Part shown: piece by piece, positions 1 to 56,632 of the stretch
Numbering within the stretch: the first letter of the stretch is position 1
Layout: the number at the start of each line of letters is the position of its first letter
Assembly (NCBI GenBank): GCA_964445435.1
Contig: CAYUKU010000001.1
Location: 118,942 to 182,941 of the forward strand
Direction of reading: 5' to 3'
DNA: 64,000 nucleotides
From: an uncultured Gammaproteobacteria bacterium
GTDB taxonomy: Bacteria; Patescibacteriota; Microgenomatia; UBA10105; UBA927
Notes under the pieces: generated by a model
Told to the model about the DNA's origin: nothing
Database searches by the model: none
The model's input: only the letters and a program-made list of their open reading frames with translations
Position numbers and translations under genes: made by a program

Positions 1-1852
1 TAATCGATCCACCAATCGATGTATACGATGTGTTTGGTGTTCCGTCAGGGCCAACAAACGTAAAAGATGCATTTGTACAACTGCCGCCTACCGCATCTGC
101 CGCGGCAACCTGAAGGGTGACATCAGTAAGTGAGGAAGGCTCTGTGACGGACGCGCTTACCCTATTGAACGCCGCCTGCGCGCTTCCTGTTGCTATGACC
201 GACGCATCAAAAATCTGCGACAGGAAGGTCCCCGTCAGGTAATAATCGCGCCCGCTGGCACCCGGTCCGCCTTCGATAATCTTAAGTTCACTCGTTGCGT
301 CGCCCGTAACGATGTACGAATATGCCCGACCGCTTGTTGCCAGGACCGTGTCCACCCCATTCACACCGGTATTTATCTGAAGCCCGCCGCAGCGTGGGAG
401 CGGATTGGCCTGTTCATTTAAAATATCAATCACCTGGTATTCCTCACCTCCAATGCCGACCACAATAGCGCGGGGACCGGAGACGACCACCACGCCGGTC
501 GGATTCATACCGTTTGTATCATAGGAACCTAACACCTGTTTGTATCCAGGCGAGCCTGACTCTACATTGATGATGAAAAATTCTCTCAACGTGGATGACG
601 AAGCGGTCACCACATACGCCCGCGTGCCGCTCGTGTTCACAAAAATGGATGTCGCCCCCAATCCCGAAAGGCCAACCTGATCCAGAATTGTCATATTGGA
701 AGGATTACTCACGTCAACGATAACGAGCTGTGCGTTGGTTGCCGACGTCACGATAAACGCCCTGTTTCCCACGATTGCCAGCTTCTTCCCTGTGCCAGGA
801 AGCGACACGCCGTCTGCGTCCAAAATTGGCCGGGAGCCAGTTTTTGAGGATAAGTCAAATGAATAGAGCTTCGTTCCTCCGACCATATACCCTACATTCC
901 CTGACGTAACGATGCCGTCCGCGTTTCCGTTTCCGGGTGCGTTGAAGTAACCGGCCTCACTATATTTTCCGTTTGCGTCGGTGCGCGCAAGGGAGATAAT
1001 TTCTACCTCTTTGGTGTTGGTGTCGGTAGCAAGGTAGGCGTAGTCATTTTCGGTGAATACATCATTTGTTTTATATCCGTCAAACGTTCCGGATATGGAT
1101 GCCACGGGATCCGTCGGGAAGGCCGGGTCGGAAACAAGCACGTTTGCGTAAGATACACCCGACGCGTTCTCTCCAGTTCCGGCCGCGATCTTTCCCTGAA
1201 TAGCGCTAATGGCGTTGGCAACACCGCTTTTGGGCAAATCAAGCGATGCGATCGTGAGAGACGGCTGACACCAGTCGCCGTAGCCCCCGGTAGAACCCAG
1301 GACAACCTCACCGCCGGATGAATTCACGACACTCGTGTGCGTTGTCTCTCCCGCATTGAAATCTTCTTCGGTCGTGTCGACTATCAGCTGATTACTATGC
1401 CTTGTCAGATATATGACGGAGGTAACTGACGTGGGAAGGGGTGTCGCCCATGATACGGTAATTGTCGCACGTCTGGTAGACAGATCTACCGTCCCGCCGG
1501 TTGTGACGATCGCGCCGGACGCATCCCGTAAAACGGATGAAAATACGATGCTTCTGTTAAACTCCTCGACCGTTTCCGATCCGCTTGCCAGAGACCACTG
1601 CGAACCTGCTATCGTCGGATGATACGACGTGCCGTTTGCGAACTGGGAAAACTGCTCCCAACCACGCTCACGGATATTTCGAATCGCCTCCTGTGCCTGC
1701 GTGAGCAATCCAATGGCGCGTGTGCGCTCTATCTGCTGCGCCTTCCCCTCGCGCGAAAGGAAAAACATCGTAAAAAGCGCAGGGAAAAAAATAAGTGAAA
1801 ACGCCATTGCAAGCAGAAGCTCAATAATGGTTTGTCCTTTCGTATATTTCAT
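1..1852 (-). CDS. Large pseudopilin/minor pilin with prepilin-type N-terminus (MKYTKGQTIIELLLAMAF) and C-terminal LVIVD-type beta-propeller repeats; 3' end runs off window
   Basis: Manual reverse-complement translation from ATG at 1850-1852 reads open to position 1 (absent from ORF track, apparently because it is edge-truncated). Class III signal motif G-Q-T-I-I-E followed by hydrophobic helix; repeated motifs such as AQLVIVDVSNPSNMTIL and YVVTASSS typical of LVIVD beta-propeller repeats. 4 bp downstream of the next pseudopilin on the same strand. Confidence 0.6.
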   Translation of the reverse strand, partial: MKYTKGQTIIELLLAMAFSLIFFPALFTMFFLSREGKAQQIERTRAIGLLTQAQEAIRNIRERGWEQFSQFANGTSYHPTIAGSQWSLASGSETVEEFNRSIVFSSVLRDASGAIVTTGGTVDLSTRRATITVSWATPLPTSVTSVIYLTRHSNQLIVDTTEEDFNAGETTHTSVVNSSGGEVVLGSTGGYGDWCQPSLTIASLDLPKSGVANAISAIQGKIAAGTGENASGVSYANVLVSDPAFPTDPVASISGTFDGYKTNDVFTENDYAYLATDTNTKEVEIISLARTDANGKYSEAGYFNAPGNGNADGIVTSGNVGYMVGGTKLYSFDLSSKTGSRPILDADGVSLPGTGKKLAIVGNRAFIVTSATNAQLVIVDVSNPSNMTILDQVGLSGLGATSIFVNTSGTRAYVVTASSSTLREFFIINVESGSPGYKQVLGSYDTNGMNPTGVVVVSGPRAIVVGIGGEEYQVIDILNEQANPLPRCGGLQINTGVNGVDTVLATSGRAYSYIVTGDATSELKIIEGGPGASGRDYYLTGTFLSQIFDASVIATGSAQAAFNRVSASVTEPSSLTDVTLQVAAADAVGGSCTNASFTFVGPDGTPNTSYTSIGGSI

Positions 1853-1856
1853 GCGG

Positions 1857-2342
1857 TTATTGTCTCGTTGTCGATACGACTCCATACTTATTTACGCTAA
1901 TCGTCACGGAATTATTCAGCGATGTATCTTGGAGAACCACGGTGTCAGAATCAGGTGTATAACTGAGCACTTCTCCGCTTCCTCGAATAAATGTAACAGT
2001 ATTTCCGGGCACTGCAATTACTGAAAAACGCATTGACGAATCCAAAGGAACCACACGGTTTTCTGCATTTCCGCTGTCGTAGACGAGTCCCGGGAACACA
2101 ATGTACCGGTCCGACTCAAAACGTATCGACCGGTCAACGATTGATCCATCTGCCGGGGCGACTCCCTGCATCGCTTGAATCTGCGCCTCCCGCAAATCCC
2201 GCACAACCTGGCTGGATACCTCCGTAAGGGTAGCACTGCGCTGGCCGCGAAACAGCGTTTGCGTAGCCAACAGAAACATCGTTGTTACCAAAAAACCGAC
2301 AACAACAATTTCCGCGAGCGTAAAACCCCCTGTATGTTTCAT
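1857..2342 (-). CDS. Pseudopilin / type IV pilin-like protein (prepilin N-terminal methylation motif GFTLAEIVVV)
   Basis: ORF 1857..2354; N-terminus MKHTGGFTLAEIVVVGFLV is a canonical prepilin peptidase cleavage/methylation site plus hydrophobic helix; likely start at the MKHT Met. Confidence 0.65.
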   Translation of the reverse strand: MKHTGGFTLAEIVVVGFLVTTMFLLATQTLFRGQRSATLTEVSSQVVRDLREAQIQAMQGVAPADGSIVDRSIRFESDRYIVFPGLVYDSGNAENRVVPLDSSMRFSVIAVPGNTVTFIRGSGEVLSYTPDSDTVVLQDTSLNNSVTISVNKYGVVSTTRQ

Positions 2343-2350
2343 GGCGTTTG

Positions 2351-4567
2351 TCATTCAACTGCCGAGTGAACTATTCCCAACCCTTCTGATGCGTATTTTT
2401 TCTGCAGTGACTCAAGTCTCGCGGGAGTAAATACGGGCAGCGTAAAACTGAAGGTCGCACCTTTTCCTGTGCCCTCCGATTCGGCTTTGACGTGCCCTCC
2501 GTGCATTTCAATAATCGATCTGCTTATGTATAGCCCCAAGCCAGTGCTTTGGGATGCGTGCATTTTATCTGACGAGGAGAGAGTCGAAAATTTCTTAAAA
2601 AGCTTCTGCCCATCCTGTGCAGTAAACCCGATGCCGGTATCAGTAACGCTGATAACAAGAGCCTCTCCCTTGGGGTGCGCATCAAGCGTTACCGTGCCCC
2701 CTTTGGGCGTAAATTTAATCGCGTTGGTCAAGAAATTGATAAGCACTTCTTTTACTTTATCCCTATCGGCGATAACGTCAGCAAGGCCGCTTCGAACGTT
2801 TGATACAAACACCAGCCCCTGCTCTTCAAACTTGGGCTGTACTTCGGCAACTGCTTCATCCACAAGTTGGGATACGGAGGTTCTTTCAAATTGCATGGCG
2901 AGCCGTCCTGATTCTATCCTGGAAATATTGAGCATATCGTTGACAAGCGCGATGAGCCGATTCGTTGAGATGAATGACCGATCCAGATAAAATTTTTGTT
3001 TTTCAGTAAGATCTCCCCCTTTGTTGGATAGCGCCATCCATAAATACGAGCGGATGGATGTGAGTGGTGCCCGCAGCTCGTGGGATGCCAATGAGACAAA
3101 TTCATCTTTCAGCTTATCCAGTTCTTTCAGACGGATATTTGCCTGACGCAAATCTTCCGTTGCACGATCAACTTCCTTCTGAAGCGTTATGCTGAATCTG
3201 CGGATTTCTTCATACGCAAGCGCATTTTGGATGGCAACCGCAGATTCCGGTGCAAAGATCTCCAGAAGCGATACGTCTTGAAACGAGTAAATATCCCCAG
3301 AAGATTTCGGCCCAAGAATAAGAAGCCCTATGAGGACTCCTTCCGTGCGCATCGGAACGACAATTGAGGCGCCCAGGGCACCAAGCGCCTGCGTGAGCAC
3401 TCCCGTCTCGAGATCATCGACATTCAGAATCGCCCTCGCGCCCGCAAGAAGCTTCATATCTTCTTCGTCTACCGTGGGAAACGGGTGATACCCCTGACTT
3501 AGTACGTCAGTAACTACGCCATCGCGCATGAGAACAAACGCTCCCCGGCTAATGCGAAGGTCAGCAAGAAGAATATCAAGAAGGCCGTGGGAAAGATCCT
3601 CGAGTCGCAGAGTGGAGGCCATCACGTGACTGAGTGCTCCCAATACGTCATTCGTCACGTACCGTCCCTTGAAAAACACCCGATCCGTGAGACGCTCCAC
3701 CATATGCCGTATGCGCTGAAACAGAAGGCTAATAACGACGGTAAGCAGGATGAGGGTCACCTGCTCACTCCGGGTAAAACTGATATTGAGAAACAAACGG
3801 CTTGCCGCTGATATCGTCAAAGAAAAACCCACCGCGATAATCGCAATCAGAATCGTATACACGACGATCCGAACGACCAGAACGTTAATATCCAAAAACC
3901 GATGCCGCACCATGGCATAACTGATACATCCCACAAAAACGAGCGTATAGAGGGGTAGAAGCCCGACGAATGCGGTGTTGTTAAATACGACAACGAAAAC
4001 AAGATTCGTGATCAAAAGCGAGAGAAACATAAATATGGTCCCAACCAGGAAAAACCGGGTCTGCGTTTTTTCGATCCCGCGGCTTTTACGAAACCGCGAT
4101 ACGAGCCAAAGAAAACCTCCCCCCAAGTACACAATCGTGTGGAGCAAAAATGCGCCCATACCGATACCCGGCGTCGACTGGATGGCGCCGTTTTTTAGAC
4201 TCACGGAAGAAAAAATAAGATCTGTCTGGGTCATGGGAACAAGAAGCGCGCTTACTAACACTGACGCCCACAAAATGAGCGGTTTCGTGCGGATTCTCGA
4301 AGAAGGAAACGTATCCACCAGCAAATAGAAAAGCACATTAATCCCAATCGCGTTGGTCATCACAAGTCGCACCCAAAACGCGGCCCCCGCATCGGTAGTT
4401 TGATGTGTCGCCGTGTAATTAAACGCGATATATAGAGCCAACACAAAGGTGAAGGAGAAAAACAACTTCCCCGTGGCGCTCTTGGGATTCTTAAGAAGCG
4501 TGAACAATCCCAGAAATATATTGCCGAGCGTAGCAATAACAACACTCACCAATTCCAGAGCAGGCAT
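2351..4567 (-). CDS. Membrane-bound sensor histidine kinase (multi-TM N-terminal sensor, HisKA + HATPase_c)
   Basis: About 8 predicted TM helices in the N-terminal half; H-box SHELRAPLTSIRSY; ATP-binding G-boxes DTGIGF and GLGLYISRSII; same strand and abutting the pseudopilin genes. Confidence 0.85.
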   Translation of the reverse strand: MPALELVSVVIATLGNIFLGLFTLLKNPKSATGKLFFSFTFVLALYIAFNYTATHQTTDAGAAFWVRLVMTNAIGINVLFYLLVDTFPSSRIRTKPLILWASVLVSALLVPMTQTDLIFSSVSLKNGAIQSTPGIGMGAFLLHTIVYLGGGFLWLVSRFRKSRGIEKTQTRFFLVGTIFMFLSLLITNLVFVVVFNNTAFVGLLPLYTLVFVGCISYAMVRHRFLDINVLVVRIVVYTILIAIIAVGFSLTISAASRLFLNISFTRSEQVTLILLTVVISLLFQRIRHMVERLTDRVFFKGRYVTNDVLGALSHVMASTLRLEDLSHGLLDILLADLRISRGAFVLMRDGVVTDVLSQGYHPFPTVDEEDMKLLAGARAILNVDDLETGVLTQALGALGASIVVPMRTEGVLIGLLILGPKSSGDIYSFQDVSLLEIFAPESAVAIQNALAYEEIRRFSITLQKEVDRATEDLRQANIRLKELDKLKDEFVSLASHELRAPLTSIRSYLWMALSNKGGDLTEKQKFYLDRSFISTNRLIALVNDMLNISRIESGRLAMQFERTSVSQLVDEAVAEVQPKFEEQGLVFVSNVRSGLADVIADRDKVKEVLINFLTNAIKFTPKGGTVTLDAHPKGEALVISVTDTGIGFTAQDGQKLFKKFSTLSSSDKMHASQSTGLGLYISRSIIEMHGGHVKAESEGTGKGATFSFTLPVFTPARLESLQKKYASEGLGIVHSAVE

Positions 4568-4585
4568 ATACGTATAGTATCACGC

Positions 4586-5542
4586 TTACGGGAGACCTAA
4601 TTGCCTGCTGATTCTGCGACGAAGTTTTCTAACCTGCGGGTCGTCACTGATACGGCCGGAAGAAAAAAACGCGTCCATATCAAAAACATATCGCCCGCTT
4701 TTCACCGGCTCTCCCAGGATAATCCGCTTGATGGTCGTTGCGACCAATCCTCCCGCAACCGTGGCGGTTGACCCAAGCTGCGGCCAGGTGGCGATGGTCT
4801 CTCCGATAGACAGAAGCGATGAAAGCATGAGCGCACTATTATGCTCAAGTCCGACGAGCTGAATAACGAGCTTTGCTTTCTGTGCCCGCGAGAGCACGTT
4901 GAAGCGAATCGATTCAACGTGCGGCAGTCGCCCCAAAAAATATCGCGGGACGGGCTTCTGGTCATACCGTTCAACGTCAAGGAAAACATTGTCCCCAACG
5001 TCAACCGCGGAAATAAGCGGGATAGACAGCGCGTGTGCAATCCGTCTGAGCACAAGCTTTCCTTCGATGTCATCGATCTCATCGACGATGCAGGAAACCC
5101 GCGGCGCACGAAGACAGAAACGCTCCATCGAGCGAGGATCCGTCTTCGTCAGCACGAATAGCTTCGCATGCGGAAGCATGTCAGAAATCAGTTGAGTTAC
5201 GACATCTGTTTTCGCGTGCCCGATCTTGGACCAGCCGACACATATCCGGTTGAGATTCGTAGGGGCAATCGTGTCGGGATCAGCGAGCTTGATACATCGC
5301 GCACGGGAAAGGATGGCCCACGTTTCTGCCGCATGGCTGCCTACCGATAATCCGAAAAATGCAACCGTTGTATTGGCAAGACGCTGCTGCTGGCCGTCGT
5401 CTATCAACTGTCTGTTGCGGGCGGTCGATAATTCAAACAGCGGATCTCCTTTTCCTGACCCCGTGCGCCTTTGGAAGAACGGAAGTTCCGTTCCCCATTC
5501 TTGGGAGACATAAAGTCGCTGTTTCTTCGTTAACGGTTTCAT
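4586..5542 (-). CDS. ThiF/MoeB/E1-like family protein with degenerate nucleotide-binding loop
   Basis: Motif VAFFGLSVGSHAAETWAILSRARCIKLADPDTIAPTNLNRI parallels the ThiF Rossmann/SNLNRQ region (GLSVGS replaces GAGGLGS); last gene of a 3-gene overlapping operon. Confidence 0.5.
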   Translation of the reverse strand: MKPLTKKQRLYVSQEWGTELPFFQRRTGSGKGDPLFELSTARNRQLIDDGQQQRLANTTVAFFGLSVGSHAAETWAILSRARCIKLADPDTIAPTNLNRICVGWSKIGHAKTDVVTQLISDMLPHAKLFVLTKTDPRSMERFCLRAPRVSCIVDEIDDIEGKLVLRRIAHALSIPLISAVDVGDNVFLDVERYDQKPVPRYFLGRLPHVESIRFNVLSRAQKAKLVIQLVGLEHNSALMLSSLLSIGETIATWPQLGSTATVAGGLVATTIKRIILGEPVKSGRYVFDMDAFFSSGRISDDPQVRKLRRRISRQLGLP

Positions 5543-7008
5543 TAACTGGTTTTCTTCACGACTCCAAGGGGGAAATATGTCGTCTTCCCAAACTCACAGA
5601 GCTCGATTTTGGGTTCGGCTTTCTTCCCCATTGTTTTGAGAACAAACCGATACTCGCTATTTATACGGGTCACTTCGCGCATAAACGCTTCCCGTATCTG
5701 TTCCTTCAGTTTCCGGTCACGGGCATGATTCGGGGCGGTTTCAACGCGAACGATAAGAATAGGGTTTTGCTTCGCATCATATGACGTTTCCAGAAGGAAC
5801 CGTCCCGTCAGGTATCTTTGAAGTGTGGGGTGGTCAACCACCTGCTGCACGTGCTCGGTATAGATATTCGCGCCGTATATCTTTGCCATGAATTTTTCTC
5901 TCCCGAAAAGATATACAAACGGAAGCTCCCAGGGAAAAGTGATCTCTGACTGCATCAGTCTTCTGTCACCCGCCTTTTCCCATAAATGCCCGAAAGGAAG
6001 AACGCCACCTTTGTCGTGGATGTTATACCGGATAAGTGGTGCTCCACTGTCTTTCGTAACACATAATTCTTCGTCTACTGCTTCAAAATACGTATACCGG
6101 GGATCATACTGATACAGTGACGGCAACCGGTCGCTTCCGAAATAACTTCGCGCGGTGCCTTGCCGGTCGATGGTTTTCCGAATCGCTATGCTTACCGGGG
6201 TCTCATGCCCCATAAGTGACGCGTCTGCCGATCCATAGAGGTTAATAATGGTCCTCAACGGATCACGCCCTCCCACAAGAGAACTCACGTACGAACGCCA
6301 GGATTCCGTAATCCCCTGACCGGTCCCTAAAAACTTAATGATTACGCGCTTCTCGAGTCTCTTCTCATGGATTGCCTCTGCAATCTCTTTCAGAAACGGT
6401 GCATGACCGGTAATTATTGTTTGATCGAACCGAGGGGAAATATCAGCAAGAATCCGAAGAATTGCCTCCCGATCGTACCCCGGCGTCATCATGGTAAGCG
6501 GGTAGTCTTTCCAGGATACGAGTGCTATTGATGTAAAGGTAAATGTTCCTGCAATCCAATTGCCCAAGGCAAATCCGTTCACGAACAGCGTCGAGTGGTG
6601 TTTAATATCAAAAATATTCTGCAGGAAAAACTCATGTACCGCTGCGCCGTCAAGATCATGTCTGAGAGAACGCGGCCAATAATGCGGCTGTCCTGTCGTC
6701 CCGGAACTCGTGGAAATCATGTTTGCGCCGGAAAGCTTCCCCTCCCATGAACGGGAAGATGCATCATACACGGAAACATAATTCTCCTTCGTTGTTTGCG
6801 GAACGTCCCGGAAGTCAGCAAATCGCGCAATTCGAGAAGGATGCAACTTGTGCTTCTGAAGAAAATCGGCATAAGCAGGGACGCTCTTTGCAGCGCGGTG
6901 AAACAGACCAAGCGCCCTTTTCTGGCTTTCACGTTCAATATGCGCAGTGCTCCCGTTTCCACTTCGGGCAAACCACGCACGCATCAGTAATGCATGTTCC
7001 CGCTGCAT
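5542..7008 (-). CDS. Adenylate-forming enzyme, PaaK/coenzyme F390 synthetase/GH3-like (ANL superfamily)
   Basis: P-loop-like ISTSSGTTGQPHYW matches the SSGTTG(K/Q)P adenylation motif of phenylacetate-CoA ligase-like enzymes; start overlaps stop of upstream HAL-like gene by 1 bp context (7011/7008) and its stop overlaps start of ThiF-like gene (5542). Confidence 0.6.
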   Translation of the reverse strand: MQREHALLMRAWFARSGNGSTAHIERESQKRALGLFHRAAKSVPAYADFLQKHKLHPSRIARFADFRDVPQTTKENYVSVYDASSRSWEGKLSGANMISTSSGTTGQPHYWPRSLRHDLDGAAVHEFFLQNIFDIKHHSTLFVNGFALGNWIAGTFTFTSIALVSWKDYPLTMMTPGYDREAILRILADISPRFDQTIITGHAPFLKEIAEAIHEKRLEKRVIIKFLGTGQGITESWRSYVSSLVGGRDPLRTIINLYGSADASLMGHETPVSIAIRKTIDRQGTARSYFGSDRLPSLYQYDPRYTYFEAVDEELCVTKDSGAPLIRYNIHDKGGVLPFGHLWEKAGDRRLMQSEITFPWELPFVYLFGREKFMAKIYGANIYTEHVQQVVDHPTLQRYLTGRFLLETSYDAKQNPILIVRVETAPNHARDRKLKEQIREAFMREVTRINSEYRFVLKTMGKKAEPKIELCEFGKTTYFPLGVVKKTS

Positions 7009-7010
7009 AG

Positions 7011-8678
7011 TTACGGCAACCCGGAAAATACATTTGTTCGAAGAAGCGCATTTACCTCGCCAGTCGCAATAGTGGACGCGATCTTTTCTATATCCGGAGC
7101 AAGCGAACGCTCTTTACCAACATAGGCAACCCGTGACCTGACGAATTCATACACCGGACGTGTCCGCGGTGCAAGAAGGTCCGGCCCCCCGCGCAAATCG
7201 ACAGCCTGACAAACCGCAATAAGCATCATTGCAAGGGAATAGCGCAACACTTCTAAATTCTGCCATGCAAGTATTGCTGAAGTCAGCGAATGCACGGTGA
7301 TATCCTGATTGGACTCTTCATGAATTCCAAACAGCGTCGTCACCGGTTGCGCAAGAGTCATCGAATAGACATCAAACATGCCTGATTCAAGCTGTATTCC
7401 CTTAAACGCACACGATGAGATCGCCTTGGGATCAGAGAGATTCGGGGGCAAGCCGTTGTTTTCATGCGGACTGACCAGTCGATGGAGGTGTCTGTCGTTT
7501 CTTTTGATAAACCTCGTTATCATCTTGCGCATCATGTCGATTGACTCTCCCATATGTTGCGCCAAAAAATTTCCGCCGCTCACCCATTGCCATGGTTCTT
7601 CGCCGGGTGTCGTGCGCGGCGGATCTATCCATAAGGGATTGTCAGAAACTGAATTTGCGTTTGTTTCGATAGTGCTAAGGATCCATTGGAGTAATTCCCT
7701 ATTTACTCCTTCTGCCTGCGAAATGCATCGAAGACTGTATGCGTCCTGCACTTTCACTCCAGATGGTCGCAACACATGACCTTTCATCTCCTGATAGGCA
7801 AGCTTACTTCCAGAAAGAAGCATCGCGTATGTTTGAGCGACTTCTTTCTGACCCGGGTGCGCGCGCACTTGTGAAAGAAACGGGTGAAATGATCTATTCG
7901 TACCTTTGAGTACTTCAACAACCATAGCACCCACTACATCCTCAATAAGTGTATAAGCAATGACATCTGCGGCAATCAGAGCAGCGGCTGCAGTAGAAAA
8001 ATTATCTCCATTGACGAACGCCAATCCCGCTTTGGGCTCCAATACCAGTGCCGGAATCTTGTGTTTCCGAAGAAGATATCGGGCTTCATATTTCTTTCCC
8101 CTACTATCGCGTGCAGCAACACCGGGTATCTGACGGATCGCTGAAAGAACCCGAGCGTTGTGGGCAAGATCTCCTGAAGCTCCCAATCCTCCGTATGCAT
8201 GAACCACCGGAGTAATCCCGGCATTCAGCACACGCCGATAAATATCCAGATCAGAAAGCCTTACTGCAGACACGCCGTTTAAGAGCATGTTCATGCGTAT
8301 AAGCATTGCCCCGCGCGTCACTTCGGAGGCAAGCTCAGGGCCAACAGTTACGTCCGTGTGGATGATGCTCTCTGAGATTGATCTTGCTTGCGCGAGACGC
8401 TCGGCGGCCGACCCTTTGTTCAGAATCGTCTGTGCCCGCGCACCGAATCCGGTATTGCATCCGTATATCGGAATACCGCGCTTCACCTGGTCAATCATCT
8501 GAACATAACTTGCCTGCATTCGTCCCCGCACCCTCCGATCGCGGGTAAATGAAACGGGGATAACACTTCGTGCGCCCGCAACGATTTGCGAAAAGGTGAG
8601 AGACGATCCCGATAGGAGGATGTTTTGTGGCGTTTGGGCAACGAGTCGATCAACAATAAATAGTCGTGTATCGTTCAT
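7011..8678 (-). CDS. MIO-dependent aromatic amino acid ammonia-lyase/aminomutase family (HAL/PAL/TAM-like)
   Basis: GGLGASGDLAHNARVLSA contains the Ala-Ser-Gly triad that forms the MIO cofactor in its conserved context (G-x-x-ASGDL-x-x-LS-x-A); CNTGFGA motif near N-terminus typical of the family. Confidence 0.75.
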   Translation of the reverse strand: MNDTRLFIVDRLVAQTPQNILLSGSSLTFSQIVAGARSVIPVSFTRDRRVRGRMQASYVQMIDQVKRGIPIYGCNTGFGARAQTILNKGSAAERLAQARSISESIIHTDVTVGPELASEVTRGAMLIRMNMLLNGVSAVRLSDLDIYRRVLNAGITPVVHAYGGLGASGDLAHNARVLSAIRQIPGVAARDSRGKKYEARYLLRKHKIPALVLEPKAGLAFVNGDNFSTAAAALIAADVIAYTLIEDVVGAMVVEVLKGTNRSFHPFLSQVRAHPGQKEVAQTYAMLLSGSKLAYQEMKGHVLRPSGVKVQDAYSLRCISQAEGVNRELLQWILSTIETNANSVSDNPLWIDPPRTTPGEEPWQWVSGGNFLAQHMGESIDMMRKMITRFIKRNDRHLHRLVSPHENNGLPPNLSDPKAISSCAFKGIQLESGMFDVYSMTLAQPVTTLFGIHEESNQDITVHSLTSAILAWQNLEVLRYSLAMMLIAVCQAVDLRGGPDLLAPRTRPVYEFVRSRVAYVGKERSLAPDIEKIASTIATGEVNALLRTNVFSGLP

Positions 8679-8765
8679 GAAACGAATGAGTCCGCTTTCA
8701 AGGAACCTATTATAGCGCGTATGTGAAATTTGTGCTTGGGAATTTTTCGATATAATATAGGAACC

Positions 8766-9164
8766 ATGACACAGCGGCTTCTCATAGTCGATGACGATCC
8801 GTTTATCCGCGATTTGTACGAAGAAGTCTTTAAAGGAGAAGGCTTTGAGGTTACAACGGCAGAAAACGGCGAACTTGGCTTGTCACATTTGAAAAACGGA
8901 GGGTATGACGCAGTCCTTTTGGATATCATGATGCCGAAACTGGATGGCTTGGGCGTTCTCACAAGTCTTAAGGAAAATCCCCCCGATCAACCCAATGGAC
9001 CAATCATTCTTCTCACCAACCTGGATCATGATCCGATGGTAGAAAAAGCCAAATCACAGGGTGCCTATTCTTACGTACTGAAAGCGGATGTGCTTCCTCC
9101 CCAACTGGTTGCAAGCGTGAGGGAGGCAATAGAATCCTCTAAAACTCGCCAACCTGACCGATAA
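8766..9164 (+). CDS. Stand-alone response regulator receiver domain protein (CheY-like)
   Basis: LLIVDDDPFIRDLY...LLDIMMPKLDG...YVLK receiver signature (phospho-Asp in LLDIMMP, conserved K). ORF track starts at 8730; MTQRLLIVDD Met at 8766 is the more plausible start. Confidence 0.8.
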   Translation: MTQRLLIVDDDPFIRDLYEEVFKGEGFEVTTAENGELGLSHLKNGGYDAVLLDIMMPKLDGLGVLTSLKENPPDQPNGPIILLTNLDHDPMVEKAKSQGAYSYVLKADVLPPQLVASVREAIESSKTRQPDR

Positions 9165-10197
9165 GGTTATAGATAGGCGCGATGATTGCCATCATCATGC
9201 CTCCGACAACAACACCGACCATTACCAGGATGATGGGCTCAAGAAGCGTCATAAGATACTGCAGGGTCGTGGAAACCTGATAGTCGAAGTACTCCGCAAG
9301 GTCTGACATCGATTTATCCAATGATCCGCTTCGCTCGCCGACCTCGATAATTTTCACCATAAGAGATGGAATGGCCCTTTGCCCCCGCAGACCGTCTGCC
9401 AGGCGCTTGCCGCTTGCGACGTACTCGCGGGCCCGGATAATTGCCTCCCGAACCTCCCCTTTTACGGCAACGGCCTGTGTTAATTCAAGGGCGCTATACA
9501 GAGGAATCGCTGAAGCAAGAAGAAGATACATGCTTCGGGAGAATCTCGTCAAATCAATTTGCCGGGCAATCGAAGACACGTATGGAAGATTGAGCATAAC
9601 GTTCACGAACAGTTTCCGCTGCTTTCTGTAAAGCAAAATTAGGATACCAATGACAAGGAAAGAAACCACGAGTGTTGGAATTGTATAGTGAAGAATGAGA
9701 TTTGAAACGGCAATCAAAATACGTGTCGGAAGCGGAAGCGTCACTTTCAGCCGCAAAAAAACATCGGCAATCTTGGGAATCACGAACGTCAACAACAGCG
9801 CCAACACCCCAAGAAACACAACGACGATAACGGCGGGGTATGTAAGCGCGGATCGGATTTTATCGCTGAATTCGATATCTTTTTTTATGGTGTTTTTTAC
9901 GTCCTTAAGAACGACGTCTATCGTTCCGGATTCTTCGCTTGCCTTGATAATCGCCACGGTAACTGAGTCAAAGACTCTCGGAAATTTGGAAAGCGCGCTA
10001 TGAAGCGGCTTTCCTTGATTGATATCTTCGGCAATGCCCTTAAGAACTATGCGCATATTGCCGGTTGAATCCTCGAGCATCGACTCAACTGCTTCAGCAA
10101 GCGTTAAGCCCCGTTCACCATCGTTGACAGATTGGACAACAGTCCGAGCTTTTCTGAATTTGGAAGCCAGATTGACGCGGATTTCATATGGATTCAA
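9139..10197 (-). CDS. pilC: Type IV pilus / T2SS inner-membrane platform protein (PilC/GspF family)
   Basis: 352 aa, two T2SSF-type cytoplasmic domains separated by TM helices, C-terminal LIGQVG-like motif; overlaps pilB stop by 14 bp. Confidence 0.8.
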   Translation of the reverse strand: MNPYEIRVNLASKFRKARTVVQSVNDGERGLTLAEAVESMLEDSTGNMRIVLKGIAEDINQGKPLHSALSKFPRVFDSVTVAIIKASEESGTIDVVLKDVKNTIKKDIEFSDKIRSALTYPAVIVVVFLGVLALLLTFVIPKIADVFLRLKVTLPLPTRILIAVSNLILHYTIPTLVVSFLVIGILILLYRKQRKLFVNVMLNLPYVSSIARQIDLTRFSRSMYLLLASAIPLYSALELTQAVAVKGEVREAIIRAREYVASGKRLADGLRGQRAIPSLMVKIIEVGERSGSLDKSMSDLAEYFDYQVSTTLQYLMTLLEPIILVMVGVVVGGMMMAIIAPIYNLIGQVGEF

Positions 10198-11899
10198 CCT
10201 TTGTGACTCTCAAAATCTCCTCGATAGTCGTAATTCCTTTGGAAACTTTCTGAAGTCCGTCATCAAGCATGGTCATCATGCCTTCTTCTATAGCCTTTTG
10301 AGCGATCATATCGCTATCCTTTCGTTCCGTAATGAGCTTGCGGATTTCTTTGGACACTTCCAAAATTTCAAAAATTCCGACCCTTCCTGCATACCCCGTG
10401 AAATGGCAGTTTTTACATCCCTGCCCCTTATACACCCTGATTTCCTTATTGGCGCCCGAAGGAATGTAGTGTTTCGCAATGACTGCAGCAGGCAAACTTT
10501 TTTGCAGTTCTGCCTCCGTGATCGTTGTTGACACACGGCAGTAGTCGCAAATTTTCCGCACCAAACGTTGAGCGATGATAAGATTCACGCTTGAGGCCAC
10601 CAAAAACGGTTCGATATGCATGTCGGTTAGTCTGGGAAGCGAGGTGGCAGCATCGTTCGTGTGCAGCGTGGAAACGACCAGATGTCCTGTTAGTGCTGCG
10701 TTGATCGCAATTCCGGCGGTTTCCGAATCCCGAATTTCTCCTACAAAAATGATATTGGGATCCTGTCTCAAAATTGACCGCAATCCGCTTGCAAATGTGA
10801 GGTTCGTTTTCGGGTTCACCTGAATTTGATTGACTCCCTTCACACGGTACTCTACGGGATCTTCGATGGTTGTAATGTTTTTCTCCCGCACGTTAAGCGT
10901 TTTAAGCATCGCGTAAATAGATGTCGTTTTTCCGCTCCCCGTCGGACCGGTCGAAAGAATCATCCCATAGGATCTGTGAAGCGCCGCAGTCACCTTCGCC
11001 ACAGCATCTTCCTCCATGCCCAAATCTGCGAAGCTAAACACGCGGAAATGGGAAACCAATAACCGCATCACCACTTTTTCTCCTTCTACCATTGGGATTA
11101 TGGAAATGCGGATGTCCACCGATTCGTCTTCATATCTGATACGCATCTTTCCGTCCTGCGGAGCCAAGTGTTCATCGGTACGAAGATTGGCCAATACCTT
11201 AATGCGGCTGACCACCTGACTATGGAGCACCTTTGAGAAATGCAGCACGTCATGAAGGATGCCGTCGATTCGGTAGCGAACGAGTGAATCCGTTTCTCCT
11301 GGCTCGATGTGAATATCTGAGGCAGTTTCGTCAACCGCGCTATGCAAAAGCAGATCTACAATTGCCGATACCGGTGCCTCATCTTCCCGTTTATATTTCT
11401 TCAGAAGTTCGTCGAATAACGTCTGCACGTCGCGTTTATGAAGCTGCAAGGCGTTACGAATGTCGCGCTCTGTGGCGTAATACACTGCAACACGCTGCTG
11501 GGTCTTTTTCTCCATCGCGGCAACAACCTGCTTATCACTGGGATCAGCCATTGCTACCTTCACGCCTTCGGCGTCGCGGGCAAATGGAACAATCTTGTGG
11601 ATACGGGCAAACTTATCGGGAACGAGACGGTAAACCGCGTCCGAAATGCTTATATCGGCAAGGTTGACAAAGGGCACGCCCAAAGAAGATGCGATAAGTT
11701 TTCCTAAATTTCCGTCGGTGATTATGTTCTTTTGAAGAAGAGCCTCTGAAAGAGGTATCCCTGCTGACTTGGCGTATTCAACGCCCGCCTGAAGCTCAGC
11801 TTCGGTAAGCACCCGGCCGTCTGTTATGATCTGTTTCAATTCGTCATCGCTCATCCCCATAGGCAGTAAGCGCAACCACACTTGCGCTTCTTCTATCAT
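10184..11899 (-). CDS. pilB: Type IV pilus assembly ATPase (PilB/GspE family)
   Basis: N-terminal GSPII_E_N-like region, Walker A LSTGPTGSGKTT, Asp/His boxes, tetracysteine motif CDYC...CKNC typical of GspE/PilB; ORF track start 11995 includes implausible leader, MIEEAQ Met at 11899 preferred. Confidence 0.88.
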   Translation of the reverse strand: MIEEAQVWLRLLPMGMSDDELKQIITDGRVLTEAELQAGVEYAKSAGIPLSEALLQKNIITDGNLGKLIASSLGVPFVNLADISISDAVYRLVPDKFARIHKIVPFARDAEGVKVAMADPSDKQVVAAMEKKTQQRVAVYYATERDIRNALQLHKRDVQTLFDELLKKYKREDEAPVSAIVDLLLHSAVDETASDIHIEPGETDSLVRYRIDGILHDVLHFSKVLHSQVVSRIKVLANLRTDEHLAPQDGKMRIRYEDESVDIRISIIPMVEGEKVVMRLLVSHFRVFSFADLGMEEDAVAKVTAALHRSYGMILSTGPTGSGKTTSIYAMLKTLNVREKNITTIEDPVEYRVKGVNQIQVNPKTNLTFASGLRSILRQDPNIIFVGEIRDSETAGIAINAALTGHLVVSTLHTNDAATSLPRLTDMHIEPFLVASSVNLIIAQRLVRKICDYCRVSTTITEAELQKSLPAAVIAKHYIPSGANKEIRVYKGQGCKNCHFTGYAGRVGIFEILEVSKEIRKLITERKDSDMIAQKAIEEGMMTMLDDGLQKVSKGITTIEEILRVTKVESI

Positions 11900-11975
11900 A
11901 AGGGAAATCACACAACTGAAACAATACGATTGACAAGTTTCACCCGGTTTCTTTATGCTAGAAGAAGGAGGAAGT

Positions 11976-12119
11976 ATGAAAAAATCTGCCCGCAAACATC
12001 ATCACGCAAAAAAAGCGAAACACCCGAGTGAAAGCGTGATTATTCAGTTTGGAGTCGCATTTATCGTGGTTGCCGGATTTGCGCTCCTCATGTATACGGT
12101 GAAGTATTTCCTCCCGTAA
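11976..12119 (+). CDS. Small (47 aa) tail-anchored membrane protein, hypothetical
   Basis: Strong SD (GAAGGAGGAAGT) 5 nt upstream of ATG; basic His/Lys-rich N-terminus then single TM helix (VIIQFGVAFIVVAGFALLMY); below ORF-track size cut-off; sits in gap between pilB and rpoD. Confidence 0.35.
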   Translation: MKKSARKHHHAKKAKHPSESVIIQFGVAFIVVAGFALLMYTVKYFLP

Positions 12120-12129
12120 CGACCACAAT

Positions 12130-13254
12130 CTATTCAAGATAGTCTTTCAGCTTCTTACTGCGCGAGGGGTGGCGCAATTTCCGAAGTGCTTTGGCCTCTA
12201 TCTGGCGTATACGCTCGCGGGTAACCCCAAACTGGGCTCCGACTTCTTCGAGCGTCCGCGGCCGGCCGTCCTCCAGGCCAAAACGAAGGATAAGTACCTT
12301 TTTCTCCCGATCGGATAGTGTTGTGAGCACTTCTTCCATGTGTTCTTTCAGAAGTTGACGGCTCGTCTGCTCATATGGTGTGGGGCCGGGGTCGGAAATG
12401 AAGTCTCCCAAGTGACTATCTTCTTCATCCCCAACCGGCGTCTCCAAGCTCGTTGGCTCCTGGGAGACCTTCATGATCTCACGCACTTTCGTCACATCAA
12501 CCTCCATGACCCTGGCTATCTCTTCAGGCGTCGGTTCGCGGCCTAAATCCTGCATGAGACGTCGCGAGGCTCGAACAAACCGGTTAATGGTTTCCACCAT
12601 GTGAACCGGGATACGGATGGTACGCGCCTGATCGGCAATGGCCCGGGTAATAGCCTGACGGATCCACCACGTGGCGTAGGTGCTGAACTTAAATCCCTTG
12701 CGCCAATCGTATTTTTCAACAGCTCTGATAAGTCCCTGATTCCCTTCCTGAATAAGATCCAAAAGGCTCATACCCCGGCCGATATACTTTTTCGCGATGG
12801 AGACCACAAGACGCAGATTGCTTTCGATGAGTTTCTTTTTTGCCTTCCGGTCGCCTTTTTCATAGCGCTTGGCAAGATACATCTCATCGGCGAATGTCAG
12901 AAGAGGAATTCGCCCAATTTCTTTGAGGTACATGCGCACCGGATCAGATACGCCTTCGCTACTAGCTTTGGCGAGCGCTTCAATCTCCCTTTCGAGATCC
13001 TGGATGCTTTTGCTTCCTTCGCGCTCCGTATCCTGGGACGTGGTTTCAAAAACGTCAATACCCGCTCGGATAAGCTTGTCGCACAACCCGTCAAGCTCCT
13101 TGATGTGGTCTTCCGGCTTAGGGAATAAAAAAAGGATATCTTCCTGGGTGACGAAGCCGTTTTCTTTTCCTTCTCTAACTAGGTCAGCAACTGATGCGGG
13201 AGTACGAGTTTTTGCCATAATGGTACCGAAAGTCTTTGCAGGAAATCCTATCAC
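12130..13254 (-). CDS. rpoD: RNA polymerase primary sigma factor (sigma-70 family)
   Basis: Regions 2-4 conserved: [54 protein letters not shown]; C-terminal region 4 HTH; downstream of dnaG in the classic arrangement. Confidence 0.9.
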
Positions 13255-28392: not shown

Positions 28393-29064
28393 CTACCGGG
28401 CCATCGTAATGGCCCAAACGCTCCCTGCTCCCACCCGCTTTAAGGCTTTGCACGCGGATCGAATTGTCGCGCCCGTCGTAAACACATCATCAAACAACAG
28501 AACGTTCCTGCCGCGGACGGCTGATTCGTGCGCAGTGAATATATCCTCAACGTTCTGCAGTCGCTGTCTCCTGTTTGCTATTTCGGCCTGTGGTGACGTT
28601 CCCCGTGTGCGTCTGAGTATATCCACGGTTATAGGAATATGCAATTTCTCCGACACAAACCTGCCCAAAACTTCCGCTTGGTTAAACCCACGGTACCGCA
28701 ATCGGGAAGAATGAAGTGCAATAGGAACAAGGCTGTCACTGAGAGGAATTCCATCAAATGCGCTGCTGTCGACAAGAGCGACAAACTCACGCGCGAGATC
28801 TGAAACGAAACGGTATTTGAGCACTTTCACCGCCTCCCGCACTGCGCCATCATAATGAAAGAAGCTCGTAAGACCATCAGGGGCATACCGTGTCCGACAC
28901 CGGGGATGAGTCATGCCCGCGATCGCCGGGTGCTCACACACCGGACAAATGGATTCATTGAGCGTGATGCTGCGAATCTTCTTCCGGCAGTCGCCACAGA
29001 AATACTGACCCACCCGACCGCACCCGAGACACCGCCTGGGGAAAATATAATCAACAAGGCCCAT
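28393..29064 (-). CDS. comF: ComF-family protein (double zinc ribbon + phosphoribosyltransferase domain)
   Basis: N-terminal CxxC...CxxC pairs (CLGCG...CGDC, CPVC...), C-terminal PRTase motif VLLFDDVFTTGAT. Confidence 0.8.
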   Translation of the reverse strand: MGLVDYIFPRRCLGCGRVGQYFCGDCRKKIRSITLNESICPVCEHPAIAGMTHPRCRTRYAPDGLTSFFHYDGAVREAVKVLKYRFVSDLAREFVALVDSSAFDGIPLSDSLVPIALHSSRLRYRGFNQAEVLGRFVSEKLHIPITVDILRRTRGTSPQAEIANRRQRLQNVEDIFTAHESAVRGRNVLLFDDVFTTGATIRSACKALKRVGAGSVWAITMAR

Positions 29065-29076
29065 GCCCCTATTATA

Positions 29077-29485
29077 GGTGGAGATGCCGAGTAATGAGCT
29101 CGGGTCCGAAAGCGTGCATCGTCAACATCTACAAGCGTAGTCCGTTTGGTTTCCCGCATTCAATACGAACGGACAAAAATGACGCGGGAGGTTGATCGGA
29201 TAGAGTCTCTGATATGCGCCGATCAACGCATACCTGACGGTCCGGCTAGGTTTCCACCCCGAATGCCTCACCGAACGAAGAACAAACGGGATGATTCCTT
29301 ATGCTCGCGCGAATGCGTAAGCTCGGGAATACTTGAGGGCCAGCTTCTGCTCAAGAAGAGCGAGCTTTGCTTCAAGTGCTTCTACTGTGTTATCAGCAGA
29401 TAGTGTTTGATACAGTTTTGCGGCTCGTGTATCATCGCCGGCTTGCAGTTGTAAATGTACATCTCTCGTCGAATCAATCATCCCC
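29077..29485 (-). ncRNA. ssrA: tmRNA (ssrA), about 409 nt, immediately downstream of smpB
   Basis: Minus-strand 5' end GGGGATGATTGATTCGACG resembles the conserved tmRNA 5' (GGGGCTGATTCTGGATTCGACGGG). 3' end GGAC-CCGAG-CTCATTA-CTCGG-CATCTCC-ACC gives a T-arm plus 7-nt strand complementary to the 5' GGGGATG. An internal reading frame ends ...LALKYSRAYAFARA-TAA (candidate tag). No covariance search possible here. Confidence 0.65.
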
Positions 29486-34489: not shown

Positions 34490-34954
34490 ATGCGCAAATT
34501 TGGCCTTCTTATCGGGCTATTTCTCGTATTGGGAATCGTTGTCCCACGGCCTACCTTTGCACAAACGCCACCCCCGCTTATCCAAAACTCTATCTGCGAA
34601 ACCCTTCCTGACGCAAAGAGGGGAGACTGCGACACATGCATGGGAGACAACTCCGGGGTATGGACAGCGCTTGGCTGCATTAATATAGCAAACATGGATA
34701 ATCCGGACCCGAGCGATTTTCTGGAAACTCTCTTGAGCTTGGGTATCGGCATAGGCGGAGGTATCTCGTTTTTGCTTATCCTTTTTGGGGGCCTTCAGAT
34801 TATGACCAGCGCCGGCAACCCGGAACAGCTTCACGCGGGCCGCGAACTCATAAGCGCAGCCGTCACAGGCCTTTTGCTTGTTATTTTCTCCATATTCCTC
34901 CTCAAGTTTATCGGGGTAAATATCATCGGTATTCCGGGATTCACGGGAGTGTAA
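34490..34954 (+). CDS. VirB2/TrbC-like T4SS pilin paralog (signal peptide + two hydrophobic helices)
   Basis: Signal peptide ending AQT; C-terminal LGIGIGGGISFLLILFGGLQIMTSAGNPEQL...GLLLVIFSIFLLKFIG matches the two-helix TrbC/VirB2 architecture and the motif shared with the six-gene array at 44061..46249. Confidence 0.6.
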   Translation: MRKFGLLIGLFLVLGIVVPRPTFAQTPPPLIQNSICETLPDAKRGDCDTCMGDNSGVWTALGCINIANMDNPDPSDFLETLLSLGIGIGGGISFLLILFGGLQIMTSAGNPEQLHAGRELISAAVTGLLLVIFSIFLLKFIGVNIIGIPGFTGV

Positions 34955-35325: not shown

Positions 35326-36030
35326 TTACGCGCCAAATCTCCGCTTTCTTCCGGCAAATTCTTTCAAAATCTCATCCAGTTTTTCCGGCGCAAACTCCGG
35401 CATATACCAGTCGGCAAACAGAAGCTCGCTATACTGACTCTGCCAGAGCAAAAATCCGCTTAAGCGCTTCTCGCCGCCCGGTCGTATGATCAAATCCGGA
35501 TCCGGAATATCAGCCGTATCCAAATACTGATGAAACGTCTCTTCCGTCAAAGAGACACTTGCGCCGGATGGCACCTTTGCGATTGCCCGGATAATCTCAT
35601 CTCTACCGCCGTAGTTAAGCGCGAAAATAACCGTGATGCGGGTGTTGTGTTTCGTAAGCTCGATAAGTTTCCGCAGGGATTCTTGGATATCGGCATCAAG
35701 CTTCGATATATCGCCGATAACTTTCACTCTCATTCCCTTTTTGTGCATCCTTTGGCCGTAGGCACCAAATCCCCACCGAAGAAGCTTCATGATTCCTCCC
35801 ACTTCGTCTTTTGTACGCTTCCAGTTCTCGGTAGACCACGCCCAGAGGGTGAGATACTCGATACCCGCATCAGCCGCGCGCTCGATAAGCGGTTCGAGAA
35901 TATGGGTTGCCACCCTGCGGTGACCCTCAACTGCTGGAAGATTGTGTTCCCGCGCCCACCGGCGATTTCCATCCATAATGATAGCCACGTGTTTTGGAAT
36001 GTCTATCGTCTTTTCCGTTTTCATACGCAT
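35326..36030 (-). CDS. uppS: Undecaprenyl diphosphate synthase (cis-isoprenyl transferase)
   Basis: HVAIIMDGNRRWA and YELLFADWYMPEF-type C-terminal motifs; last gene of mevalonate operon. Confidence 0.85.
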   Translation of the reverse strand: MRMKTEKTIDIPKHVAIIMDGNRRWAREHNLPAVEGHRRVATHILEPLIERAADAGIEYLTLWAWSTENWKRTKDEVGGIMKLLRWGFGAYGQRMHKKGMRVKVIGDISKLDADIQESLRKLIELTKHNTRITVIFALNYGGRDEIIRAIAKVPSGASVSLTEETFHQYLDTADIPDPDLIIRPGGEKRLSGFLLWQSQYSELLFADWYMPEFAPEKLDEILKEFAGRKRRFGA

Positions 36031-36047
36031 GTTAGCGTGTTATCACA

Positions 36048-39134: not shown

Positions 39135-39135
39135 A

Positions 39136-54892: not shown

Positions 54893-55106
54893 GAGGCTAT
54901 AGTATCACAAAAATCGCAGGCTACGAGCTGCGTAAATAAGGGGCGAGAGAATAATTTGAAAGGCAACTGCGCGTTTGCGTGGCTTATCTTATGTTGCCCG
55001 TATATGAAACGCGCATTTAACGAGGATGGGATAGGCTTCCGCGATAAAACGAGGTCGCCAAGTGGGTCTTTGCAAATTCTTTCGCTCGCCCCTTTTAAAA
55101 ACCTTT

Positions 55107-55135: not shown

Positions 55136-55218
55136 ATTCTGATGCGCTTTGTGCTATTGCGCTCGCGTCAAAATTACCCCAAAATAGTACTACCAGCCGA
55201 TAGTGCGGAGTTCTGTCT

Positions 55219-56631: not shown

Positions 56632-56632
56632 T

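Follow-up and report, generated by a model that had tools for sequence, protein, structure and literature searches.

What a pilin carrying a beta-propeller contributes to a type IV pilus, and whether a sensor kinase encoded immediately before the pilin genes should be regarded as their regulator, are two questions raised by one end of a 64-kb stretch of bacterial DNA (contig CAYUKU010000001.1, positions 118,942 to 182,941; hereafter the window, to which coordinates refer unless stated otherwise). Judged from sequence, its source is a Gottesmanbacteria-like member of the Microgenomates, within the Patescibacteria or Candidate Phyla Radiation (CPR), and positions 1-2354 hold the first two genes of a conserved pilus-cluster pilin block. 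The reading that we favour, with a probability of about 0.65, is that the large pilin is a modular component of the pilus tip complex, and that the kinase belongs to an inserted two-component module probably acting on the pilus motor and not on transcription. A first-pass annotation of the same DNA had seen in the large pilin a candidate adhesin and in its linkage to the kinase a signal-dependent control of pilus display, and we explore here how far each of these proposals can be maintained.

Gene organisation and integrity of the reading frames

The kinase gene (4567..2351), a gene for a 165-aa prepilin (2354..1857) and the gene for the large prepilin (1852 to window base 1) follow one another on the minus strand. 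This succession of a multi-transmembrane histidine kinase, a small and then a large pseudopilin had been claimed from the sequence at first sight, and is confirmed by the open reading frames (ORFs) and their motifs. The stop codon of the kinase overlaps the ATG of the 165-aa pilin gene (ATGA), and 4 nucleotides (nt) separate the two pilin genes. Similarly tight spacing extends upstream, where a ThiF-like gene ends 18 nt before the kinase and overlaps the gene of an adenylating enzyme, which in turn is separated by 2 nt from an ammonia-lyase gene. Such spacing suggests that the kinase and pilin genes would be co-transcribed. A scan of positions 1-12300 for promoters and terminators returned counts no higher than the shuffled expectation, and is therefore uninformative on transcription units.

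The large ORF starts with an ATG at position 1852 and remains open through window base 1, so that the window holds its 5' 617 codons and the last 46 lie past the edge. An independent assembly (Logan SRR10095373, contig L001) is identical to the window across all 4438 overlapping bases and runs 3.9 kb past base 1, and the leftward extension it affords completes the ORF at 663 aa. Given this identity and completion, together with hundreds of homologs of similar length, the ORF can be taken as real; the in-frame stop that would have marked it as an artefact is absent from both assemblies and from hundreds of orthologs.

A seven-bladed propeller on a prepilin leader

The N-terminus of the 663-aa protein reads MKYTKG/QTIIELLLAMAFSLIFFPALF (the slash marks the predicted cleavage site, after which the sequence continues as QTIIE), with Gly-1 and Glu+5 in place. 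In a 78-sequence family alignment both residues (G6 and E11) are at least 90% conserved. An AlphaFold2 model, built on an 86%-identical ortholog (P0001), has a predicted local distance difference score (pLDDT) of 89 and a predicted template-modelling score (pTM) of 0.80. It begins with a 55-residue helix (9-63) followed by the strands of a beta-sheet head (76-150, pLDDT 84-94), and its C-terminal part consists of seven four-stranded blades (214-544) and a beta-sandwich (560-663). Projected onto the minus strand of the window, the class III signal peptide and alpha1 helix occupy approximately 1852..1664, the pilin head approximately 1663..1373, the linker and propeller approximately 1372..218, and the start of the C-terminal sandwich 217..1.

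The third strand of each blade is LVIVD-like, and the LVIVD-type repeats, arranged in tandem, are predicted by the model to close into a seven-bladed propeller. Pfam sees one of these repeats only (residues 353-389; 29.2 bits for a cutoff of 20.2), the remaining six blades being recognised by structure and by eye, and the LVIVD family PF08309 is precomputed for many members of the giant-pilin family. The earlier claim that LVIVD repeats are fused to a prepilin N-terminus thus holds, as one repeat above threshold and a complete propeller in the model. In a fold search the best structural matches of the model were generic WD40-like propellers, and the family profile found nothing meaningful among Protein Data Bank (PDB) sequences (best E 0.35). 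The propeller family of the PilY1/Neisseria PilC type gave no Pfam match to the giant pilin even at E<=10, and an RCC1 match was likewise absent.

Homologs of similar length number at least 895 in a database search. The taxonomic names attached to them all belong to the Microgenomates (Gottesman-, Woese- and Levybacteria), to which a genome scan adds Roizman- and Amesbacteria, and the closest named relatives are from Candidatus Gottesmanbacteria, with 72% identity. The heading 'Gammaproteobacteria' on several of the genome records we take for a mislabel from bulk submission. The alignment contains the invariant blocks DLPKSGVAN, GTGENASGVS, DGYKTND and ELKIIEGGPG, and four conserved cysteines. 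A subfamily of about 1015-1040 aa (P0038-P0055, locus L006) has some 350 aa more than the query, of which it conserves the first 80%, and gives an extra faint Beta_propel match.

Architectures of this kind have been catalogued among the modular type IV pilins, including combinations of IPR012902 with IPR013211 (Raynaud et al. 2021, PMC8179133), the latter being the LVIVD repeat (PMC10210494). Dataset S1 of PMC8179133 includes prepilin-LVIVD rows of 8, 8 and 7 proteins, and a Falkowbacteria protein with 12 copies. As in the catalogued modular pilins (PMC8179133), a class III pilin module here carries a large non-pilin module, for which display at the tip is presumed. The catalogued prepilin-LVIVD entries are, however, list lines without structure, context or function, whereas the family described here comprises at least 895 proteins with a fixed operon position. 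Its combination of one seven-bladed propeller with a beta-sandwich, and its unusually high conservation, also go beyond those entries, and the modular pilins that have been studied, PilB and PilC of Streptococcus sanguinis, carry von Willebrand factor A (vWA) or lectin modules and no propellers.

The giant pilin in a conserved minor-pilin block

The context on the pilin side was examined in the 10-kb flanks of 80 species-representative homologs out of 178 found, and on six looked-up contigs. The gene order is near-universal: with the giant pilin start as zero, PilB lies at about -3.2 kb, PilC at -1.5 kb and a small pilin at -0.5 kb, and downstream follow a 168-aa pilin at +2.0 kb, a 130-aa protein at +2.5 kb, a variable gene and a major pilin at about +3.6 kb. 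This order is kept in at least 70 loci, and in 70 of 76 distant loci the small pilin precedes the giant one by about 0.5 kb. In the window lineage the same genes can be followed on L001, where the 663-aa gene is succeeded by the 168-aa pilin (QG/FTLLE; N_methyl 27.6 bits, above threshold), the 130-aa pilin-like protein (L001 5083-5475; KG/QVMIT, with Gln+1 and no Glu+5, and a faint PilX_N match), a 221-aa protein with a C-terminal transmembrane (TM) segment only (L001 5482-6147) and a 174-aa major-pilin-like protein (KG/FTLIELLVV; N_methyl 36.5 bits, with GspG and IV_pilin_GFxxxE matches), after which comes MsrA. In other lineages the slot of the 221-aa protein is taken by unrelated proteins of 220-356 aa.

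The block is opened by the 165-aa minor pilin (1857..2354, minus strand), whose N-terminus, MTNAMKHTGG/FTLAEIVVV, has Gly-1, Phe+1 and Glu+5, and which is GspH/FimU/ComGD-like by weak ComGD and prepilin-peptidase-dependent-protein matches (NCBIfam ComGD E=8e-5, 23 bits for a cutoff of 70). The giant pilin gene therefore comes second of four in a minor-pilin block with the features of a core minor-pilin set, namely one pilin without Glu+5, machinery genes and a separate major pilin. The four genes are candidate gene-by-gene counterparts of a GspH/I/J/K- or FimU/PilV/W/X-type set.

One may ask whether the pseudopilins encoded by the block serve a type II secretion-like system and not a surface pilus. 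Some homologs are indeed named 'type II secretion system protein' or 'PulG' in databases, and the PilB and PilC homologs match the generic T2SSE and T2SSF families. For these bacteria, on the other hand, a typical outer membrane is described as missing. In the window and the related loci examined there was no trace of a secretin or of GspC/L/M, the block ends in a major pilin with a canonical KG/FTLIELLVV N-terminus, and pili have been observed on cultivated Patescibacteria (PMC11623550), so that we regard a secretion apparatus as very improbable.

The pilus motor is encoded close by. PilC, the platform protein (T2SSF 1.6e-43), lies at 9139..10197 and a PilB-type extension ATPase with an MshEN N-domain (T2SSE 2e-126, MshEN 1e-18) at 10184..11995, both on the minus strand, the true PilB start being probably about 45 codons inside the listed ORF, as ortholog lengths of 556-571 aa suggest. 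Together with the lone CheY-like receiver at 8763..9164 these are the genes that the first-pass annotation had placed nearby. The 3' ends of pilC and of the plus-strand receiver gene overlap convergently by 26 nt (9139-9164).

Across the 76 distant loci the median identity is 58% for PilB, 52% for the major pilin, 51% for PilC and 48% for the giant pilin over its full length, compared with 37% for both the 130-aa protein and the 168-aa pilin and 31% for the small pilin. A conservation so close to that of PilC and the major pilin, and far above that of the neighbouring minor pilins, is unusual for a host-specific adhesin; taken with the invariant blocks and the four cysteines, it points to a conserved ligand or to an indispensable assembly role. 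The same features could be explained if the giant pilin were no host-cell adhesin at all, and served instead as a conserved machinery or priming component, or as the receptor by which a competence-type pilus takes up DNA or nutrients. A reliance on nucleic acids acquired from outside is ascribed to CPR bacteria, and a ComFC-like gene is present in the window (28393-29064). A DNA-binding signature is, however, absent from the giant pilin, and the pilus-tip propellers that have been studied, PilY1 and PilX2, act in adhesion (PMC11623550, PMC7541494). A role other than adhesion seems to us somewhat unlikely, if worth keeping in view; it overlaps in any case with the reading that we favour, membership of the tip complex being common to both and the ligand alone differing. 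The earlier proposal of a giant tip or minor pilin as a candidate adhesin agrees with the signal motif, the model, the position in the block and the published analogues, although the PilC-like conservation points away from a host-specific adhesin.

A close analogue is PilX2 of Nanosynbacter lyticus TM7x (Saccharibacteria), deletion of which halves host binding while filaments remain (PMC11623550). PilX2 shares with the 663-aa protein that it is a patescibacterial minor pilin with a C-terminal seven-bladed propeller, the largest of its locus, and that its signal peptide is non-canonical. Its propeller is of the RCC1 type and not of the LVIVD type, and the TM7x pilins are reported to be poorly conserved across Patescibacteria, whereas in the family considered here several Microgenomates lineages share about 48% identity. 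In proteobacteria, PilY1 and the minor pilins form a priming and tip complex (PMC7541494), and in the PilY1/PilC systems with FimU-PilVWX (Pseudomonas, Myxococcus, Neisseria) a propeller protein is likewise encoded within a block of four core minor pilins. PilY1 differs in being a non-pilin that docks onto the minor pilins, whereas the propeller encoded here is covalently fused to a pilin leader and alpha1 helix. Prepilin-LVIVD architectures (PMC8179133) and a propeller-bearing minor pilin in Saccharibacteria (PMC11623550) are thus already published. In our literature coverage, which is incomplete, no paper was found on the giant-pilin family, on its operon position or on the lyase-ligase-ThiF-kinase-CheY module to which we now turn.

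A kinase with constant partners

The 738-aa sensor histidine kinase (2351..4567, minus strand) comprises about nine TM helices (about residues 2-298, including the HisKA_7TM region), a GAF domain (about 305-428), a dimerisation and histidine phosphotransfer (DHp) domain with H496, and a catalytic ATPase (CA) domain. Pfam recognises HisKA_7TM (1e-10), HisKA (3e-15) and HATPase_c (3e-28), with GAF_2 and GAF sub-threshold, and about nine hydrophobic segments can be counted between residues 6 and 290. The SHELRAP H-box containing H496 and the N, G1 and G2 boxes (NAIKFT, DTGIGF and GLGLYI) are all present, and H496, N615, D643, G645 and G647 are invariant in 48 kinase homologs. The AlphaFold2 model (pLDDT 82) shows nine TM helices, the GAF domain, a long DHp helix and the CA domain, its pTM of 0.42 being low, as expected of a flexible monomer. 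A Foldseek search with this model retrieved kinase cores and phytochrome-type GAF kinases only, the 7TM bundle being without informative match. The extracytoplasmic loops are short and there is no large extracytoplasmic domain.

Upstream of the kinase, on the same strand, lies a string of three enzyme genes. It is headed by an aromatic amino-acid ammonia-lyase or aminomutase of the type carrying a 4-methylideneimidazole-5-one (MIO) group (7011..8678; Lyase_aromatic 6e-105, with NCBIfam PAL, HAL and TAL matches), in the translation of which the MIO-forming ASG triad can be read (GASGDL). There follow a 488-aa adenylate-forming enzyme (5542..7008), without Pfam family and weakly resembling the aryl-acid adenylating enzymes of the PaaK/FlxY type (NCBIfam FlxY and PaaK at E of about 1e-5, PDB PaaK at E=0.003), and a ThiF-like adenylyltransferase of the E1 type (4586..5542; Pfam ThiF 1.7e-17), which resembles the Rv1355c family (NCBIfam 6e-52, under the cutoff) and TcdA-type E1 enzymes. 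The gene of the response regulator (8763..9164, plus strand; Response_reg 1.7e-24) diverges from that of the lyase and converges with pilC; its product is a CheY-like protein of 133 aa that consists of a receiver (REC) domain only, with its DD...D...T...K residues visible.

The order in which kinase and pilins stand in the window is exceptional. Among the 75 giant-pilin loci having sufficient upstream sequence, the kinase directly precedes the small pilin in nine, which come from the Gottesmanbacteria clade of the window and from four scattered lineages; Levybacteria and others have the order response regulator, PilB, PilC, pilins, and no kinase. What does recur is the company of the kinase. 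A search with the sensor half returned about 100 kinase homologs from Patescibacteria, and in each of four looked-up contexts (32-48% identity in the sensor region) the genes in front of the kinase and on its strand are those of a lyase, of a protein of about 490-500 aa without Pfam family and of a ThiF-like protein, often with one more. This enzyme string upstream of the kinase family is conserved in Microgenomates, related loci being L088, L089, L090, L091, L094 and L166. In some loci the extra gene between ThiF and kinase encodes 294-369 aa with faint nitroreductase or methyltransferase matches.

Counts on the kinase side were taken from 34 loci with 7TM homology, close and distant homologs being tallied apart. 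The adenylating enzyme or the ThiF-like protein is found upstream in 9 of 10 close and 2 of 12 distant homologs, and the lyase in 5 of 8 and 1 of 11, respectively. A CheY-like receiver lies immediately 3' of the kinase on the same strand in 6 of 11 close and 11 of 17 distant homologs (17 of 28 overall); the arrangement of the window, with the receiver upstream on the opposite strand, occurs in two close homologs and no distant one, which brings adjacent receivers to 8 of 13 among close homologs. The adjacent regulators in homologous loci are, as in the window, REC-only proteins (116-136 aa). On sequence comparison the kinase is part of a conserved enzyme-kinase-receiver module, recurrently nested in or beside type IV pilus clusters. 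Its position right before the pilins is, by the same comparison, a secondary, lineage-specific arrangement and not ancestral to the pilin block.

Control of the pilin genes or of the pilus?

The classical expectation for such a kinase is that it senses a signal, or the level of pilins in the membrane, and controls transcription of the pilin operon, whence the proposal of signal-dependent pilus display. The overlap of the kinase stop with the first pilin start, and the tight spacing of the whole string from lyase to pilins, would suit this view, and a kinase with about nine TM helices and no large external domain resembles the intramembrane-sensing PilS and FimS. In the PilS-PilR and FimS-AlgR systems of Pseudomonas aeruginosa (PMC6058289, PMC5979040) a multi-TM kinase without large periplasmic domain is likewise linked to pilin genes, and kinases of this type sense how much pilin or minor pilin the membrane contains (PMC6058289, PMC5979040). 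The order kinase-then-pilins, moreover, is also found at an unrelated pilus locus, L090. The partners of PilS and FimS, however, are DNA-binding proteins (the NtrC-type PilR and the LytTR-type AlgR), whereas the sole response regulator near the window kinase is a bare receiver with neither a DNA-binding nor a sigma-54 activator domain, and no sigma-54-type regulator was seen among the window ORFs scanned. The window kinase differs further in combining HisKA_7TM with GAF and in being tied to an enzyme cassette. Since the receiver lacks a DNA-binding output, since kinase and pilins adjoin in nine of 75 loci only, and since it is the receiver and not the pilins that follows the kinase in most homologous contexts, we hold transcriptional control of the pilin genes to be improbable. 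What survives of the proposed link between kinase and pilus display is the frequent location of the module at pilus clusters.

This location could itself be fortuitous, the kinase and its enzymes forming an independent signalling or metabolic module that was inserted by chance between pilC and the pilins. The constant partners of the kinase are, after all, the adenylating enzyme, the ThiF-like enzyme and the receiver, and not the pilins; most giant-pilin loci have no kinase; and the module copies at L089, L091 and L139, as well as several distant homologs, have no pilus genes in the fetched flanks. Yet of the 13 copies flanked on each side by 6 kb or more, 6 (4 of 6 close, 2 of 7 distant) have PilB, PilC or giant-pilin genes no farther than about 10 kb away, for which the chance expectation would be a few percent, a rough estimate that assumes genomes of about 1 Mb with one or two pilus loci and is not a computed null. 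This proximity recurs, moreover, at three or more types of pilus locus (the window type, L088, L090, L096 and L166). At L088 the order is lyase, X, ThiF, further genes, kinase, response regulator, PilB, PilC, and L090, a different pilus locus, repeats the layout of the window: PilB, a PilT-like protein, PilC, response regulator on the opposite strand, lyase, X, ThiF, Y, kinase, pilin, pilin, PilD. Finally, loci of the giant-pilin family commonly have a CheY-like receiver encoded directly before PilB. A chance insertion is in our estimation unlikely, and a functional tie of the module to the pilus is plausible, because the frequency with which the module sits within or next to type IV pilus clusters greatly exceeds the rough chance estimate.

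A probable tip complex and its motor

In the reading that we favour, the 663-aa protein would be processed by a prepilin peptidase encoded elsewhere, and would join the 165-, 168- and 130-aa pilins in a priming or tip complex, where its propeller and sandwich may be displayed as a ligand-binding module. It would then merge in one polypeptide the functions which proteobacteria divide between PilY1 and a minor pilin. A place in the pilus tip is probable by analogy with PilY1 and its minor pilins, with the modular pilins, and with PilX2 of TM7x. It is probably not the topmost subunit, since it retains Glu+5; the 130-aa protein, from which Glu+5 is missing, is the better candidate for this GspK/PilX-like position.

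The signalling module sits between pilC and the pilins in the window lineage, with the receiver inverted. The receiver may be taken as the cognate partner of the kinase, given their conserved neighbourhood, and the kinase would pass its phosphate to it. CheY-like single-domain regulators are known to act on the pilus motor, examples being PilG/PilH of the Chp system and the cyanobacterial PixE/PilB1 pair. The likeness to PilG/PilH and PixE lies in a stand-alone receiver encoded beside PilB and PilC, for which a protein-protein output is the only obvious option; the cluster in the window differs from the Chp system in having no CheA, CheW or methyl-accepting chemotaxis protein genes, its input coming from a classical HisKA kinase. 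As the receiver has no output domain, the most likely course is that, once phosphorylated, it would control the PilB/PilC motor by protein-protein contact in the manner of PilG/PilH. With no large extracytoplasmic domain, the kinase is most likely to respond to a cue from the membrane or the cytoplasm, perceived by its TM bundle or GAF domain, and this cue might, speculatively, be a product of the neighbouring enzymes. A bolder version, in which the cassette is an undescribed signalling unit whose enzymes make or modify an aromatic-acid-derived molecule, whose kinase senses it, and whose CheY-like receiver gates the PilB/PilC motor of a pilus tipped by an LVIVD propeller, we would put forward only as a long shot. 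One specific variant, with an aromatic chromophore supplied by lyase and ligase and bound covalently to the kinase, as in photoactive yellow protein, was considered and rejected: there is no invariant or near-invariant cysteine in the 48 kinase homologs, and the GAF domain of the window kinase has none at all.

Several observations pull in the other direction, and have to be set against this reading alongside the PilC-like conservation of the giant pilin and the pilus-free copies of the module already discussed. The +1 residue of the giant pilin (codon 1835-1837) is Gln in nearly all family members and not Phe or Met, a state that recalls some archaeal pilins, where Gln+1 becomes pyroglutamate. 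A whole-protein Pfam scan of the giant pilin gave no N_methyl match, and on the N-terminus alone the model scores 17.9 bits (E=0.0023) for a cutoff of 21.2. The prepilin assignment made at first pass therefore fails by this profile, a failure contradicted by the conservation of Gly-1 and Glu+5 and by the structure. The 165-aa pilin has no Pfam match, N_methyl included. The PilD, PilT and PilM/N/O proteins, for which the first-pass annotation had recommended a search, are not encoded by any of the approximately 50 larger ORFs scanned in the window, nor is an A24 peptidase found among these, PilD being present in the related locus L090. And the location at the tip and the ligand, like the cleavage of the prepilin and the transfer of phosphate from kinase to receiver, have the standing of inferences.

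Other features of the window and of related loci

In related pilus loci the pilin block may be followed by a very large protein with propeller repeats of the RCC1/WD40 type and an M23 peptidase (1262 aa, L006 17876-21664) or by a 667-aa M23 peptidase (L005 14610-16613), which hints at a pilus-linked cell-wall-degrading activity.

Elsewhere in the window, positions 52706-61535 carry a set resembling type IV secretion or conjugation systems, with a VirD4/TraG-like coupling ATPase (52706-54892, minus strand), a PrgI-family protein (55219-56631), a VirB4/TraG P-loop ATPase (57294-59216) and a 771-aa protein with an M23 peptidase (59220-61535); a weak T4SS_pilin match lies at 34490-34954. A complete-looking mevalonate block on the minus strand (35326-42833) comprises 3-hydroxy-3-methylglutaryl-CoA (HMG-CoA) reductase, an HMG-CoA synthase-like protein, thiolase, two GHMP kinases and diphosphomevalonate decarboxylase, and is adjoined by undecaprenyl diphosphate synthase. 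The ComFC-like gene mentioned above (minus strand), encoding a double zinc ribbon and a phosphoribosyltransferase and known elsewhere as a DNA-uptake accessory, adjoins a transfer-messenger RNA gene (29076-29485, minus strand), and six tRNA genes (four Ser, two Arg) are clustered at 22.1-27.6 kb. Three long ORFs, of 1423 aa (47807-52078, minus strand), 605 aa (29945-31762, minus strand) and 509 aa (46265-47794, plus strand), have no Pfam family at E<=0.001.

Implications

Current views are not overturned by these findings, which extend the ideas derived from modular pilins, PilX2 and PilY1 to another CPR lineage. The kinase adjacent to the pilins is to be read not as their dedicated regulator but as part of a recurrent enzyme-kinase-CheY module, which is biochemically testable and could prove more novel than the pilin itself. 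Should this module, against the odds, turn out to be the metabolite-responsive unit outlined above, it would mean that ultrasmall episymbionts place their attachment to hosts or substrates under the control of a metabolite. No organelle is a better candidate for attachment to hosts and for uptake than the type IV pilus in the CPR/Patescibacteria, nearly all of which are uncultured. In this context a large and strongly conserved family of propeller pilins, with a fixed place in a Microgenomates operon and a confident structural model, is a target both for binding studies on its propeller and sandwich and for antibodies or tags that would locate the pilus in enrichment cultures.

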